Assembly (NCBI GenBank): GCA_027081355.1 | Contig: JALWKP010000031.1 | Span: forward strand, 1 to 24,658 | Source: Campylobacteraceae bacterium | GTDB lineage: Bacteria > Campylobacterota > Campylobacteria > Campylobacterales > Sulfurovaceae | Length of the DNA: 24,658 nucleotides | Direction: 5' to 3' | Translations under genes and position numbers: made by a program | In this document: piece after piece, positions 3,988 through 18,454 of the stretch | Numbering within the stretch: position 1 is the stretch's first letter | Layout of the letters: every line of letters begins with the position of its first letter | The notes under the pieces: generated by a model | Seen by the model: the letters and a program-made list of their open reading frames with translations, nothing else | Told to the model about the DNA's origin: nothing | The model's database searches: none

Positions 3988-4314
3988 ATGAATGAGAACA
4001 ATTTAGATATTTTAAATTTGCTAGGCATTAATGCAAAGGATGGAAAAATTGATATAGATTTAAATAAAACTAAAAGTTTTTTTACAACTTTGCAAGAAAC
4101 ACTACAAGAAAAGGCGCAAAAAATCGATGAAAATATTAAAAATGACAAAGTTGATTTAGAAGATGTCGGATTAAAAATCGATAAAGAACATATTTCCTTG
4201 GATTTAAATAAAACCAAAAACTTTTTTGACGGTTTAACACAAAAATTGGAAAAATTTGTTGAAGAGATAGATAAAACAGCAAAAGAGTTAAAGAGACCGC
4301 TGGATAATAGTTAG
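3988..4314 (+). CDS. Hypothetical protein with a two-unit internal tandem repeat (about 40 aa each). The 3' end is contributed by a MITE-like element
   Basis: Repeat units IDIDLNKTKSFFTTLQETLQEKAQKIDE and ISLDLNKTKNFFDGLTQKLEKFVEEIDK. Strong SD AAGGGGG. The last 8 codons and the stop (KRPLDNS*) are encoded by the left inverted repeat of the dispersed element, copy C. Confidence 0.55.
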   Translation: MNENNLDILNLLGINAKDGKIDIDLNKTKSFFTTLQETLQEKAQKIDENIKNDKVDLEDVGLKIDKEHISLDLNKTKNFFDGLTQKLEKFVEEIDKTAKELKRPLDNS

Positions 4315-8765: not shown

Positions 8766-9875
8766 CTATTTAAGCTTAAACATTCCATTTAATACACCAT
8801 CTAATCCGTTGTAAATATTTAAAGTTCCGACAGTTCGTGTAATTTTTTCTAATGCTTCAAGCTCTTTCAAACGCGCTAAAGTCGGATTATCTTTCATTAA
8901 TTTTGCTGTATTAAGCAAAGAGCGTGTTGCTGCAGTTTCTTCACGGCGTTTAATAATATTAGCTTCTGCACGCTTTTTTGCTTCAATAACTTTATTAAAA
9001 ATTTCACGCATTTCACCAGGTAAAATTATGTCTTTAATATGTATATTTTTTAATTCAACACCGATACCATCTAAACTTTTTTTGAAATTTTGAACAATTT
9101 CTCCAGAAATTCTGTGCTGTTTTTGCAGCACTTCGTCAATTTCTAAATTGCCAATATGCTCTCGCACTGCAAATTGCAGCTGTTTATAGATGTATTCGTC
9201 TGCATCTTCTGCTTCGGTTATAAATTTTAAGCCGTCTGCAATTTTATAGTGCAGCACTGCATTTAGGCGGATTGTAACTTTATCCTTTGTTAGCAGTTCC
9301 TGCTGATTTAACGAAAGCTCTTTTAAGCGCTTATCAATTTGAGAAACTGTAATGGTGTTTAACTCATTAAAAAAGTAATATACTCCCGAATTTAGAGTCT
9401 TTTCATATTTTCCATTCCTAAACAGATATGCTTCTTCGCCTTCTCTTACATAAACTTTTAAAACAGAACTTGGCAAAATTTTCATTGTTTCAATATAATC
9501 GGCTTGCTCTTTGTTTAATTGATAATTGCTTCGGATATCAACCTTTTGCACTTGCAAATCAAGCTCTTTAAAATAGAGTTTTACAGCACCCAAAGGTAAA
9601 AAATCAGTAAATTTGCCGTCAATTTTTACAAAAGCCCTTTCATAGTCGTTTAACTCGATAATTTTAAACTCTTGATTGACAATTTCTATAAAGTTTTTGT
9701 AAAGCAGTTTTGCTTTTTCTCCGCTTATGCCGTTTTCTTTTTTATCGATAATTTCTACTCTATATCTGCCAAAAGGGTTAAAAAGTTTATGCACGCCGGT
9801 ATCTAACACCTTTATTAACTTTTCATCTTTGTAAACTAATGCTTTTTCACTCTCTTTTATTCTTATCTTAAACAT
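8766..9875 (-). CDS. SPFH/band-7 (stomatin/HflK/C-like) domain protein with no transmembrane segment and an N-terminal SPFH-like partial duplication
   Basis: The C-terminal half reads QELLTKDKVTIRLNAVLHYKIADGLKF...IKDIILPGEMREIFNKVIEAKKRAEANIIKRREETAATRSLLNTAKLMKDNP..ARLKELEALEKI, a canonical SPFH core. The start is trimmed to MFKIRI, which has AGGAG 6 nt upstream. The track start MLLALTKGDK lacks an SD. Confidence 0.65.
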   Translation of the reverse strand: MFKIRIKESEKALVYKDEKLIKVLDTGVHKLFNPFGRYRVEIIDKKENGISGEKAKLLYKNFIEIVNQEFKIIELNDYERAFVKIDGKFTDFLPLGAVKLYFKELDLQVQKVDIRSNYQLNKEQADYIETMKILPSSVLKVYVREGEEAYLFRNGKYEKTLNSGVYYFFNELNTITVSQIDKRLKELSLNQQELLTKDKVTIRLNAVLHYKIADGLKFITEAEDADEYIYKQLQFAVREHIGNLEIDEVLQKQHRISGEIVQNFKKSLDGIGVELKNIHIKDIILPGEMREIFNKVIEAKKRAEANIIKRREETAATRSLLNTAKLMKDNPTLARLKELEALEKITRTVGTLNIYNGLDGVLNGMFKLK

Positions 9876-10418: not shown

Positions 10419-11306
10419 TTAGTCAATTTCAAGATATACAAGTTTTGTAAGAGCAAAGATGCTATCGTTATCATCGCTTATCATTAAGTAGCGGTTTTTG
10501 CCGATTTTGGCTAAACCTTCAAAATTTTCCATATTAAAAAAACGGTTTATTTTAAGTTTCAATAAAAGTTCTTGCCTGCCGGTTTCTAAATTTAACTCTG
10601 CCAAGTTTACCTCAAATTTGCCTATAAACCAGTTGAATGCCCGCTCTAATACTAAAATATGTTTATCATCCATCACTTCTATTTCGGATATTCCATTTCT
10701 TTTTATCTTTTCCATTTTAAATTTCCACTCTCTGCCTTTAGTGGAATATATAGTTTGGTTTTCTCTTTTAGTCCCTTTTTTTGGATACTCTAAAGCAGTT
10801 AAAAAACCGTATTTTTTATGCCATGCTAAAGACTCCAAAGATTTATTAGGCGAGCTTACTTCAATATTCTGCAAAGATTTTGGCAATTTGACTTCATTTA
10901 ACCTTATACCTGTTTTGCTAAAGTGATAAATTTTAGTAATTCTTTCAAAACTGATATAGAGTTCTCCTTTGTTATCTAGCGCCATTCCTTCACTGTCTCG
11001 TTGATTGTCTTTTAATATTTTACCGTTTTTGTCCCGCAGCCGGTAAGAGTGCAAAGGTTTTAATTTAAAGCCGCTGTTGCTAAATTTTGCTTTAAAGGTA
11101 AATAGAAACCCTTTATCGCTTAGCATATATAAAATCGAACTCTTTTTATCATAAGCCAAATCTGAAATTTCAGATAATTTATTGCCGTCAATAGTATATT
11201 TTAAATTTTTCTGGCTGATTATTTTAACTTTTTTACTTGCATTTACAGGTATTATTTCAAATGCATTTAAACTTATGAATAAAAATAAAAAAATAGATAT
11301 TTTCAT
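10419..11306 (-). CDS. Secreted beta-propeller-like protein, phytase-like esterase / SdiA-regulated family (tentative)
   Basis: Signal peptide MKISIFLFLFISLNAFE. Motifs SEISDLAYDKKSSILYMLSDKG and SEGMALDNKGELYISFE recall the esterase-like activity of phytase family. The start is trimmed from the track's MQRFHY..., which is encoded inside repeat copy B. Confidence 0.5.
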   Translation of the reverse strand: MKISIFLFLFISLNAFEIIPVNASKKVKIISQKNLKYTIDGNKLSEISDLAYDKKSSILYMLSDKGFLFTFKAKFSNSGFKLKPLHSYRLRDKNGKILKDNQRDSEGMALDNKGELYISFERITKIYHFSKTGIRLNEVKLPKSLQNIEVSSPNKSLESLAWHKKYGFLTALEYPKKGTKRENQTIYSTKGREWKFKMEKIKRNGISEIEVMDDKHILVLERAFNWFIGKFEVNLAELNLETGRQELLLKLKINRFFNMENFEGLAKIGKNRYLMISDDNDSIFALTKLVYLEID

Positions 11307-11350
11307 ATATTGTCCTATATTAGACTTGTTGCAATATAAGTGCGGATAAT

Positions 11351-11515
11351 GAAACCGCTGCACAATAGCAAGCCCAAATTACAGCGTTATAAAATATCGT
11401 AAATCAAAAAAAATTATTTTTAGGCTTAGCTTTGACCAGGCTTTTAAGTAATTTTATTTAATTTTTGATACTTTCTGGCACCATACTTTGAAACTAGATA
11501 TTGCGCAGCGGTCTC
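11351..11515 (-). mobile_element. MITE-like dispersed element, copy B (165 bp, imperfect 17/19 inverted repeat, opposite orientation to copy A)
   Basis: gaaaccgctgcacaatag...gcccaaattacagcgttataaaatatcgtaaatcaaaaaaa...cttagctttgaccaggc...tttgatactttctggcaccatactttgaaactagatattgcgcagcggtctc. Its reverse complement aligns base-for-base with copy A. Confidence 0.75.
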
Positions 11516-11550
11516 ATAATTTGTTTATGGCATTTCATCGAACATAGCTT

Positions 11551-11594: not shown

Positions 11595-12344
11595 TTAATC
11601 TGTCAAAGCCTTAACAGTAGCAAACGGCGAAACTATATTGGAAATCAGCTGTAATGGATAAACCATATTTGTTGTATTAAGTTTAAACTCTTTTGAACTG
11701 TCTGGCTGAACATAAATTATATCGTTTGGCTTAATTATAATATTTGAAGCTTGCAATTTGTTAAAGTTTGTCAAGTCAAGTCTTCTCATATGCATTTTTC
11801 CATTTGCATCTGTGCTGATTACTATTATGTTATTTCTGACTGCATGGTCGGTTAAATCTCCTGCTGATGCAATAGCCTGCAATATTGTCATATACTCTTT
11901 ATCTACTTTAATCGGTCCGGGTTTTTTAACTTCGCCTAATACATAAATTCTTTTGTTTAAAACTTCTAAATTCAAAGCAGGGTTTCTTAAATATTTAGAG
12001 TATCTTCTCTCTAACATTTTAGCAGCCTCAGTCTGGGTCAAACCTGCTACATGGACTCTATGAATTAAAGGCAAAGAGATATCGCCGTTGCTATCGACTA
12101 AAATACCGTTGCTGTTAGGAGGAATTAAATCCGGATGCTGGTAAATAGTAATTGCCAATCTGTCATTTTTTAATATTCTGTAATCTATTTTAGCAGGAAT
12201 ATTTCCGTCATAACTTTGAGAAACCGAAGCTGCGCCGTCGGAATTTGAACTATCTATACTTTTATCTTGAAGCAGCTTATAATTCTTTGGAGCACAGCCT
12301 GTTATCAACAAAAGCATCACTAGCAGTATTATTTTCTTTAGCAT
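11595..12344 (-). CDS. wza: Polysaccharide export outer-membrane lipoprotein, Wza/OPX family
   Basis: Lipobox LLITGC. Poly_export-like YRILKNDRLAITIY and SLBB-type repeats (IYVLGEVKKPGPIKV, IIKPNDIIYV). SD AAGGA. Confidence 0.78.
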   Translation of the reverse strand: MLKKIILLVMLLLITGCAPKNYKLLQDKSIDSSNSDGAASVSQSYDGNIPAKIDYRILKNDRLAITIYQHPDLIPPNSNGILVDSNGDISLPLIHRVHVAGLTQTEAAKMLERRYSKYLRNPALNLEVLNKRIYVLGEVKKPGPIKVDKEYMTILQAIASAGDLTDHAVRNNIIVISTDANGKMHMRRLDLTNFNKLQASNIIIKPNDIIYVQPDSSKEFKLNTTNMVYPLQLISNIVSPFATVKALTD

Positions 12345-12347
12345 TTT

Positions 12348-13085
12348 TTATCCTTTTAAATTATTAAGAACTCTGTTTTTCTTAAAAATAGAGTTGTAAA
12401 TGTCTAACCTGCGAACCTCTTTTAAGCCTTCTATGTGCCTTAAACCATGGGCATCGCTTCCTACAAAATCCACCAGTCCGTTATTAACCAAATACTCGGC
12501 TTTATGCTTAGATTCTTTTCCGTATGCACCTGCTAAGGAGTTTAAATTCATTTGAAATAATACTCCAATATTTTTTAATGTTGCATACTCTTTAGCCGGA
12601 TTGCTGATATATCTATAGCGCTCAGGATGGGCAAAAACCGGAGTATAACCATTGGCTTGTATTTCAAATATCATATCTTCCAAATAGTAAGGTTTATGCG
12701 AAAAAGAGCTTTCAAAAAGCAAATAATTTTCGCCAAAAGTTAAAATATCCCCGCTTTCTAAATGCTCTAAAAAGCCGTCGTCTAAATAATATTCAGCCGC
12801 TGCTTCTATTTTAATTTTTAATCCTCTCAATTTTGCTTCTTTTTGCAGCAGTGCCAGGCTTTTTTTTATTTTAGCAGGTGTATTTTTATAAACATCAGCC
12901 ATAATATGGGGCGTTGCCACAATCTTTTCATATCCTAGCTCTTGCATTGCTTTAAGCATGGCGATAGATTCGCCCAAACTCTTTGCGCCATCATCAAGCG
13001 ACGGAAGAATGTGAGAATGAATATCGGTTGTCAATCGATATTTTGCCTCATTTTTTTTACTCTTTTTAAAAAACCAAAATGTCAT
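12348..13085 (-). CDS. wzb: Protein-tyrosine phosphatase, PHP-type (CpsB/YwqE-like), manganese-dependent
   Basis: DIHSHILPSLDDG..., ...TPHI..., ...FAHPERY..., ...GSDAHG... are PHP-domain metal-binding motifs. The start is trimmed to ATG 13085 (MTFWFF), which has AAGGTGG 5 nt upstream. The track start at 13094 is GTG. Confidence 0.78.
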   Translation of the reverse strand: MTFWFFKKSKKNEAKYRLTTDIHSHILPSLDDGAKSLGESIAMLKAMQELGYEKIVATPHIMADVYKNTPAKIKKSLALLQKEAKLRGLKIKIEAAAEYYLDDGFLEHLESGDILTFGENYLLFESSFSHKPYYLEDMIFEIQANGYTPVFAHPERYRYISNPAKEYATLKNIGVLFQMNLNSLAGAYGKESKHKAEYLVNNGLVDFVGSDAHGLRHIEGLKEVRRLDIYNSIFKKNRVLNNLKG

Positions 13086-17327: not shown

Positions 17328-17485
17328 TTAAAATCCTTTTAAAACCAAAAATTGTGAATATGTTATTCCATTGAATTTAGATTAATATTTTACTCTTTTC
17401 TTCTTCAAAACCTCTTTTAAAAGAAGATGTTTTTAAAATGCCGCTGTAAGTTATTGCAGCATAGCTTTTAAGAAAAAGAGACAAG

Positions 17486-17545
17486 AAAACCACAGTATAA
17501 TAGCCGGTTCTAAAGTATGGTTTTTGAAAGTATTATTTTATTTAT
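17486..17545 (+). repeat. Truncated copy D of the MITE-like element (left about 60 bp only)
   Basis: aaaccacagtataatagccggttctaaagtatggtttttgaaagtatta aligns to the left end of copy A, 75 bp upstream of it. Confidence 0.6.
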
Positions 17546-17619
17546 ATGGTGTAAGTATCGTAAATAGGGGAGGGTCATCGCCATTAAATTAAGAATTTTA
17601 TATCCATAAAATGCAGAAA

Positions 17620-17782
17620 GAGACCACTGCACAATAGTTAGTTCCAAAGTATGGTGCTAGAAAGTATCAGAAATTAAATAAAATTACTCGAAAGCCTAGC
17701 CAAAGCTAAGCAGAGAGGAATTTTTTTGATTTATGATATTTTATAGTGCCGTAATTTGGGCTAACTATTGTGCAGTGGTCTC
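17620..17782 (+). mobile_element. MITE-like dispersed element, copy A (163 bp, perfect 20-bp terminal inverted repeats)
   Basis: Left TIR gagaccactgcacaatagtt (17620-17639). The right TIR aactattgtgcagtggtctc (17763-17782) is its exact reverse complement. Internal core ...ggtgctagaaagtatcagaaattaaataaa...ctagccaaagctaagcagagagga...gatttatgatattttatagtgccgtaatttgggct. No ORF lies within it. Confidence 0.8.
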
Positions 17783-17940
17783 ACAAAGCTTAAAGCTGAC
17801 AGAGAAAAGCATCTTGACATTCGTATTACAGAATCAAAAACAAATTTCTCTAATCTCCAATTTCTAATCTCTAATCTCTCTTCTCTAAATGGGTATTTTA
17901 CTATTAAGTTAATGATAATGCAGGAAAGTAATAAAATAAG

Positions 17941-18025
17941 TGGTGCGGATGAGAGGAGTCGAACCTCCACGCCTTGCGGCACTAGATCCTAAGTCTAGCG
18001 TGTCTGCCAGTTCCACCACATCCGC
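17941..18025 (-). tRNA. tRNA-Leu (anticodon TAG), class II with long variable arm
   Basis: rc: GCGGATG TG GTGG...CACG C TAGAC-TTAGGAT-CTAGT GCCGCAAGGCGT GGAGG-TTCGACT-CCTCT CATCCGC A CCA. 7-bp acceptor; CCA encoded. Confidence 0.85.
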
Positions 18026-18052
18026 AAAAAGGTTTAGCAATAAGCTAAAAGG

Positions 18053-18129
18053 TGGTACACCCGTTAGGATTCGAACCTAAGACCGCCCGCTTAGAAGGCG
18101 GGTGCTCTATCCAGCTGAGCTACGAGTGC
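18053..18129 (-). tRNA. tRNA-Arg (anticodon TCT)
   Basis: rc: GCACTCG TA GCTC AGCTGGATA GAGC A CCCGC-CTTCTAA-GCGGG CGGTC TTAGG-TTCGAAT-CCTAA CGGGTGT A CCA. Confidence 0.8.
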
Positions 18130-18191
18130 ATTTAAAATGGTTGCATATAGCACAAAAGGCTAATTAATCGCCTCTAGCCTACCAAACAGGT

Positions 18192-18268
18192 TGGTACGCC
18201 AGAGAGGATTTGAACCCCTAACCCTCTGATCCGAAGTCAGATGCTCTATCCAATTGAGCCACTGGCGC
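18192..18268 (-). tRNA. tRNA-Arg (anticodon TCG, by my fold)
   Basis: rc: GCGCCAG TG GCTC AATTGGATA GAGC A TCTGA-CTTCGGA-TCAGA GGGTT AGGGG-TTCAAAT-CCTCT CTGGCGT A CCA. Confidence 0.7.
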
Positions 18269-18291
18269 ATTTTAGAGGGAAGTGACTATAA

Positions 18292-18369
18292 TGGGGTGGA
18301 TAATGGGATTCGAACCCACGGCCCCCAGAGCCACAATCTGGTGCTCTAACCAACTGAGCTATATCCACC
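18292..18369 (-). tRNA. tRNA-His (anticodon GTG) with encoded G-1
   Basis: rc: G GTGGATA TA GCTC AGTTGGTTA GAGC A CCAGA-TTGTGGC-TCTGG GGGCC GTGGG-TTCGAAT-CCCAT TATCCAC C CCA. G-1 pairs with C73. Confidence 0.85.
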
Positions 18370-18377
18370 GCATAAGA

Positions 18378-18454
18378 TGGTCGGAGTGAAAGGACTCGAA
18401 CCTTCGACCCCCTGGTCCCAAACCAGGTGCGCTACCAGACTGCGCTACACTCCG
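18378..18454 (-). tRNA. tRNA-Pro (anticodon TGG)
   Basis: rc: CGGAGTG TA GCGC AGTCTGGTA GCGC A CCTGG-TTTGGGA-CCAGG GGGTC GAAGG-TTCGAGT-CCTTT CACTCCG A CCA. Confidence 0.85.

Follow-up and report, generated by a model that had tools for sequence, protein, structure and literature searches.

Recently mobile, hairpin-forming repeats of about 163 bp in an uncultured Campylobacterota lineage: a probable family of non-autonomous DNA transposons

The stretch of DNA analysed here (24,658 nucleotides, hereafter the window) carries several copies of a short repeat at its gene boundaries, which raises the question of what these repeats are, i.e. a dispersed mobile family, the product of local duplication, or structured sequences maintained by the host. 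Our data suggest that they very probably represent a MITE, i.e. a DNA transposon of the non-autonomous kind, with a length of about 163 bp, which forms a hairpin over its whole length and would be moved by a transposase encoded elsewhere.

Copies of the repeat and their genomic setting

The window is ordinary chromosomal DNA of 36 % G+C and encodes acetolactate synthase, LpxD, a capsule-type export cluster, PanE, five tRNAs, the CCA-adding enzyme and topoisomerase I. Proteins identical or nearly identical to its own come from metagenome-assembled genomes labelled Campylobacteraceae, and the nearest named PanE is that of Nitratifractor, with 51 % identity. The repeats and the neighbouring tRNA genes are as follows.

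17620-17782, + strand: copy A, full element of 163 bp, a recent and strain-polymorphic insertion
11351-11515, - strand: copy B, full element of 165 bp, between the Poly_export gene and a phytase-like gene
4293 to about 4449, + strand: copy C, an old and decaying copy, left terminus with three mismatches, right terminus gone
17486-17545, + strand: copy D, left-arm stub of about 60 bp from an old copy, 75 bp before copy A
17941-18454, - strand: cluster of five tRNA genes (Leu-TAG, Arg-TCT, Arg-TCG, His-GTG and Pro-TGG), immediately beside copy A and upstream of panE in the direction of transcription

All four copies were located where a sequence-only reading of this DNA had placed them, and its description of B as the same element in opposite orientation, of C as a copy with a preserved left and a decayed right end, and of D as a left-end stub was confirmed in each case. 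Pairwise identity among them ranges from 73 to 84 %, with 84 % over 165 bp between A and the reverse-complemented B, and 80-84 % between A and C. D matches the left arm of the element at 72-78 % over 45-60 nt (BLAST E = 1e-4) and is a genuine, albeit marginal, copy. Degenerate patterns built on an interior 27-mer and on the terminus match copies A to D and nothing else in the window, while shuffled sequences predict 0.00-0.15 matches. C was found in all strains seen, and D in every strain, including those that lack A. A fifth member of the family, again a one-arm stub, lies about 800 bp outside the start of the window (L021:~11955-12005), with the gene for acetyl-CoA synthetase on one side and a small convergent ORF on the other, and ends in ...CTAACTATTGTGCAGTGGTATC followed by AT. 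The count so far is thus five copies or stubs in around 32 kb, plus three copies in sister species.

The ORF scan found no ORF lying wholly inside any copy; those of at least 20 aa that touch one all extend into the flank and do not exceed 74 aa, in agreement with the earlier claim that the copies have no coding capacity. The claim that they sit at gene boundaries held as well: C overlaps the stop of the ORF at 3988-4314, B lies 45 bp upstream of the start of the phytase-like gene (ATG at 11306), and A is 158 bp away from tRNA-Leu. The terminus contains stop codons in two frames, i.e. GAG ACC ACT GCA CAA TAG and AGA CCA CTG CAC AAT AGT TAG, and insertions at gene ends are probably tolerated for this reason. 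Two genes owe their last codons and stop to the element: the left terminus of C supplies the final seven codons (KRPLDNS) and the stop of the ORF at 3988-4314, and the APP1 gene of the sister species L014 (L014:6025-6867) ends in ETTTQ* within the element copy at that locus. Insertion at the 3' end of a gene is therefore tolerated.

Other repeats lie close to these copies. A 25-nt inverted repeat (11249-11273 and 12539-12563, 24/25 complementary and 1265 bp apart) has one arm in the part of the phytase-like gene that encodes the signal peptide and the other in the gene of the CpsB phosphatase, so that copy B and the Poly_export gene lie between the arms; in L014, precisely this stretch, with the Poly_export and phytase-like genes, is swapped for an APP1-type gene, and an element copy marks the junction. 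Between copy A and tRNA-Leu, the heptamer TCTCTAA is repeated six times in tandem (17847-17888), and its unit number varies among near-identical strains, with one more in L017 and fewer in L019; similar heptamer runs are found upstream of panE in L014. A further short repeat (GCCATTAARTTAAG..TTTTATRTCCATAAAATGCA, 17580-17615) abuts the insertion site of A and occurs once in the window. It apparently recurs two to three times, in both orientations, upstream of L014 panE (~157-200, ~370-420 and 630-690), where the exact core 13-mer was confirmed at two sites and the middle site was recognised by eye.

Movement among strains and sister species

Evidence for mobility is given when comparing the spacer between panE and the tRNA genes among strains. 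In four strains of about 99.8 % identity (L017, L018, L019 and L020) the site of copy A is empty and reads ...CAGCTTTAAGC TTTTT GCATTTTATGG..., while the window and L002 read ...AAGC TTTGT (163-bp element) TTTCT GCATT..., a net gain of 168 bp (163 + 5). The contigs of L001 and L003 end exactly at the element edge (17620) and carry the flank of the occupied type, so that four assemblies are empty at this site and four are either occupied or broken at the element edge. These breaks probably arose because the repeat occurs elsewhere in those genomes, as expected in short-read assembly.

Outside the window's genome, copies were found at L004:899-1061, L014:5880-6042 and L014:1-51, the last at a contig end. 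Copy A is 98.2 % identical to the L014:5880-6042 copy and 96.9 % identical to the L004 copy, while the panE genes of the two lineages share 83-85 % nucleotide identity with that of the window. The L004 copy adjoins an ORF of 1817 aa and the L014 copy lies between the CpsB and APP1 genes, i.e. at loci non-orthologous to that of A. Since a non-coding copy is far better conserved than a housekeeping gene and is found at different positions, transposition or transfer must have been recent. The sequence-only reading had proposed a mobile, dispersed family and had named copies restricted to this stretch, together with a lack of target-site duplications, as the outcome against it; what we found instead were copies at unrelated loci in other genomes, an insertion polymorphism with an intact empty site, and 5-bp direct repeats on the flanks that are perfect in 4 of 13 copies. 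The family has recently been mobile and is demonstrably active.

A scan of genome collections with the interior 27-mer returned only one further copy (that of L004), and the same pattern had no match in the metagenome scan. Copy A gave no BLASTN match in plasmid and phage collections, termini patterns had none in viral contigs, and no termini were seen in more distant relatives, i.e. those with a PanE of 58-63 % identity (L027-L030) and a relative of the metagenome host described below with a BioB of 75 % identity (L031-L033). Likewise, a protein database search with the internal frame of the element (MIFYSAVIWA[N/Y]YC..) for spurious gene calls revealed no further copies.

No transposase gene was present in the window or, according to precomputed Pfam tables, among the examined genes of loci around homologues of the window's proteins, where the genes neighbouring copies have housekeeping or unassigned Pfam profiles; nor was one found among nine metagenome-locus proteins sampled by Pfam. 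In the metagenome loci, pairs of termini separated by 1-2 kb were considered as a possible autonomous element and rejected, as they enclose genes for biotin synthase, shikimate kinase and an AMP-binding enzyme. An autonomous element with these termini was found neither in the window and among the examined genes of these loci nor in the plasmid, phage or viral collections.

Termini, hairpin and flanking sequences

The element is AT-rich, and its ends read GAGACC. Copy A ends in GAGACCACTGCACAATAGTTAG and its exact reverse complement, which amounts to a perfect terminal inverted repeat of 22 bp; the perfection of this repeat had been recognised before, while its length had been put at 20 bp. Over 17-22 bp, the window family conserves a recognition-type end sequence, GAGACCACTGCACAATAG, and the 17-bp terminus GAGACCACTGCAYAATA is recognisable in B, C and the L004 and L014 copies. 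The outermost GAGACC/GGTCTC (17620-17625 and 17777-17782 in A, and all other termini) is at the same time an outward-facing type IIS site of BsaI/Eco31I, probably by coincidence.

Beyond the terminal repeats, the two halves of the element are complementary over nearly its whole length, a full-length hairpin that had previously been overlooked. Copy A folds into a single hairpin of about 69 pairs, the tip of which is a small GCTA/TAGC stem with a loop of four bases, at a fold energy of -87.4 kcal/mol as compared with -31.7 ± 3.8 in shuffled sequences (z = -14.7). B and the L004 copy show the same fold, which is mostly gone in C, and no hairpin remains in D.

A scan of metagenome contigs for both termini spaced 105-135 bp apart revealed six elements of about 146-158 bp on VAPL, VAOW and VAPE contigs (36-39 % G+C). 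Related elements were present at the following loci.

L005, L006, L007, L009, L011 and L013: metagenome loci with related elements of about 156 bp and about 264 bp

The termini of these elements are identical to those of A at 15-17 of 17 positions, including positions left free in the search pattern, and both the flanks (AT/element/AT) and the placement at gene boundaries correspond to those of the window family. Their interiors (centre CTAACCGGTTAG) are unrelated to it and are paired over less of their length. The same contigs hold the ~264-bp variants, several solitary termini and a 25-bp remnant at L006:4810-4834 (GAGACCACTGCACAGTAAGCGTCTC), and in L013 a solitary terminus is found at four consecutive gene boundaries. 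In the regions L013:3362-5294, L009:3231-5599 and 9196-9212, L007:8105-10325 and L006:4810-4834, nearly every gene boundary carries a full element, a 264-bp variant, a lone terminus or a remnant; the lone termini mostly read GGTCTCAT, and some provide the stop codon of the adjacent gene. The proteins most similar to BioB of the metagenome host (55-58 %) carry the labels Deltaproteobacteria or Deferrimicrobiaceae, and not one of its best 120 matches has a Campylobacterota label. On the evidence of this one gene, the metagenome host probably belongs to a different phylum from that of the window.

Pattern matches in L008, L010 and L012 turned out to be unrelated repeats. Those at L010:16-641 and L012:2729-3288 are arrays of a 22-bp unit with GAGACCACTGAGACATA, in inverted blocks around telomere-like GGGTTCA/GGGTTTA heptamer repeats.

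For the analysis of the insertion sites, the flanks of 13 terminus-bounded copies were compared, i.e. four of the window family and nine of the metagenome family. The pentamers flanking A and B are given here.

17615-17619: AGAAA, left flank of A, imperfect copy of the duplicated target
17783-17787: ACAAA, right flank of A, imperfect copy of the duplicated target; its C variant is found only in A-carrying assemblies (the window, L001, L002 and L003)
11346-11350: ATAAT, left direct repeat of B, 5/5 identical to 11516-11520
11516-11520: ATAAT, right direct repeat of B

The 5-bp flanks are direct repeats that agree at all five positions in 4 of the 13 copies, i.e. B (ATAAT), L007a (ATAAT), L011 (ATTAT) and L013b (ATGAT), at four positions in seven and at three in the remaining two; the L014 copy, flanked by TAAAA and TATAA, has one mismatch. 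The direct match equals or exceeds the inverted match in 11 of 13, and the consensus over all copies is ATNAT, with AT adjoining the element on either side. The inspection for direct repeats of 2-9 bp that had been proposed for these flanks thus did reveal repeats of 5 bp, while a perfect duplication was restricted to the four copies named. By contrast, the suggested TA or TTA duplication does not agree with flanks of the AT/element/AT type and a net gain of 5 bp.

Two points complicate the length of the duplication. The empty site of A is AAAAA (window + strand), and both pentamers of A deviate from it at the same position, which is not what simple gap repair would predict; this feature counts against the MITE reading. 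In addition, the mismatches concentrate at the pentamer position farthest from the element, and therefore an alternative model also fits, in which one T...A base per side belongs to the element and the target is TNA. Read in this way, the duplication is perfect in 8 of the 13 copies and the ends are TGAGACC...GGTCTCA in most copies, while the young copies A (A...A) and L014 (A...T) are without those bases. The duplication would accordingly be either 5 bp, or 3 bp (TNA) with element ends of the 5'-TG...CA-3' type. For A, a 4-bp CTTT duplication and a duplication-free insertion were also considered and rejected, since they misfit the other copies or leave a discrepancy of 1 bp.

Alternative explanations and relation to known repeats

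Two alternatives concern the nature of the repeats. The clustering of five copies and stubs within about 32 kb, with A only 75 bp from D, would be in line with local segmental duplication or recombination. We give this explanation practically no credence, considering that copies occupy unrelated loci in L004 and L014, that no flanking sequence is common between copies, that A has a clean empty site, and that assemblies break at the element edge as they do for a repeat present elsewhere. It is likewise very unlikely that the host maintains the elements as structured RNAs with a function or as regulatory hairpins of the REP/ERIC type (terminators, mRNA stabilisers or sRNA precursors), with mobility being secondary. 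The hairpin is indeed extremely stable, as seen in A, and as compared with A, three pairs of B have changed in a compensatory manner. In A, B and the L004 copy, G.U pairs (6 vs 1 in A) favour the fold of the strand reading GAGACC..TAGTTCC over that of its complement by 15-18 kcal/mol, which in the young copies hints weakly at an RNA structure specific to one strand; however, this asymmetry was inherited from one master sequence and is therefore a single observation rather than three. B and C are found in sense orientation within transcription units or downstream of them, but overall three copies are in sense and three in antisense orientation to the flanking genes, and no promoter-like or terminator-like sites coinciding with copies were found. 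The Rfam 15 scan of the window at gathering threshold returned the five tRNAs only, and a permissive scan of 17400-17950 gave, as its best hits, eukaryotic microRNA-precursor hairpin models, all below half of the gathering score. Moreover, pairing is freely lost in older copies: relative to A, B has seven broken pairs and seven one-sided changes that still pair, C has 15 of 69 pairs broken and nine such one-sided changes, and D has lost the hairpin. Transitions that preserve a pair as G.U are about as frequent as those that create C.A (7 vs 4 in B and 9 vs 8 in C), and A is dispensable, as half of the near-identical strains lack it. A selfish element whose copies decay once they have inserted accounts for these observations, given the free loss of pairs, the neutral transitions, the unbiased orientation, the lack of signals and the dispensability of A. 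The REP-like or sRNA-like nature that the sequence-only reading had offered as an alternative is therefore disfavoured by the neutral decay, the lack of an orientation bias and the lack of an Rfam match.

A third alternative concerns the enzyme. A whole element that is self-complementary has the substrate geometry used by tyrosine (Y1/HUH) transposases of the IS200/IS605 or REP-associated type, and since no DDE transposase was found nearby either, the element might be moved as a single-stranded DNA hairpin by such an enzyme. In IS200/IS605-type elements the ends are asymmetric and no duplication arises, whereas the termini here are identical inverted copies, 5 bp are gained on insertion, and direct repeats form the flanks. 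There is no REP-type GTAG or CGTC head either, and the metagenome family shares the termini only and no common hairpin, which suggests that it is the termini that are recognised. We consider this mode of movement very unlikely. For the preferred reading, i.e. a MITE, the following course may be proposed: a transposase encoded elsewhere in the genome would bind both identical ends, cut the element out or copy it, and place it at short sites rich in AT (ATNAT by consensus, and AAAAA in the case of A) with a net duplication of 5 bp. Inserted copies are not preserved and pass from substitutions (B) through loss of an end (C) to one-arm stubs (D and the L021 stub).

Prokaryotic MITEs are defined, for working purposes, as elements of 50-800 bp with terminal inverted repeats of at least 10-15 bp, a duplication of 2-10 bp and no transposase (PMC11602168). 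The window family agrees with this definition in being small, ending in inverted repeats, containing no ORF, lying between genes and occurring in several copies, and its movement was demonstrated as well; it differs from a generic MITE in that the duplication is imperfect in most copies and no cognate insertion sequence was identified. Derivation from IS630/Tc1-mariner elements, as for MITEs of the Correia and RUP type, was rejected, as it needs a TA duplication, while the flanks here read AT/element/AT and 5 bp were gained at A. Correia elements (CREE/NEMIS) of Neisseria are non-coding, about 100-160 bp long and have terminal inverted repeats of about 26 bp with a TA duplication. They are similar to the window family in size, lack of coding sequence, gene-boundary sites, the ability to fold as hairpins in transcripts and presence or absence among strains; in contrast, the window family has unrelated termini, a 5-bp gain at ATNAT-like sites and self-complementarity along its entire length. 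The bcr1 repeat of the Bacillus cereus group, with about 155 bp and a duplicated TTTAT pentamer on its flanks, resembles it in size, AT-rich pentanucleotide flanks, a predicted stable secondary structure and the lack of an identified transposase, while its sequence and host are unrelated. MITEs derived from the IS3 family have 5'-TG...CA-3' ends and a duplication of 3-5 bp; TGAGACC...GGTCTCA ends with TNA would fit this type in 8 of the 13 copies, but the A and L014 copies are without those bases. Tn3-derived TIMEs have termini of about 38 bp starting with GGGG and a 5-bp AT-rich duplication, and membership in this group was rejected: a gain of 5 AT-rich bp would agree with it, but the ends begin with GAGACC and their conserved part spans 17-22 bp.

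Enterobacteria harbour imperfect palindromes that are regarded as small mobile sequences, such as ERIC/IRU (127 bp) and RU-2 (168 bp) (PMC2229807, PMC2759123). They share with the window family the imperfect palindrome over the whole length, a similar size, an intergenic location, the lack of a known autonomous partner and the ability to extend into reading frames. They differ in having no sequence similarity and another host phylum; moreover, recent movement of the window family is evident from an empty site and from copies that are nearly identical between species. Altogether, the window family resembles Correia, ERIC/RU-2 and bcr1-type palindromes in the way it works, with neither sequence nor target in common. 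REPs, according to the definition in PMC3733652, are G+C-rich palindromes of 20-40 bp headed by GTAG or CGTC. Measured against that definition, REP/BIME membership was rejected for an AT-rich element of 163 bp with GAGACC ends and no such head. A literature search for MITEs in Campylobacterota and related genera returned nothing relevant, and searches for the terminus sequence and for sample accessions likewise yielded no match and nothing relevant, respectively. The family is a MITE not previously described, of a category that is itself known.

Considering that the same terminus is found on another interior in an apparently unrelated host, it is tempting to speculate that GAGACCACTGCAYAATA marks a widespread, uncharacterised transposon superfamily that is shared across unrelated phyla, with interchangeable hairpin interiors, possibly 5'-TG...CA-3' ends, a TNA/ATNAT target and lone, well-conserved termini at nearly all gene boundaries of some genomes; as a whole, this idea is unlikely. 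If it were true, the density and conservation of the lone termini could mean that the host has co-opted them as a protein-binding or gene-punctuating site, as has been argued for REP/BIME. In any case, a terminus common to the two families provides a handle for finding the transposase.

Since MITEs are common, the category is not what is new here, but rather a family without any match in Rfam, in plasmids and phages or in the literature in the searches made here. It is active in an uncultured lineage of Campylobacterota that is related to Nitratifractor and known only from metagenomes. The element accounts for the breaks at its edges in short-read assemblies from these organisms, and the presence or absence of copy A constitutes a marker for strain typing.
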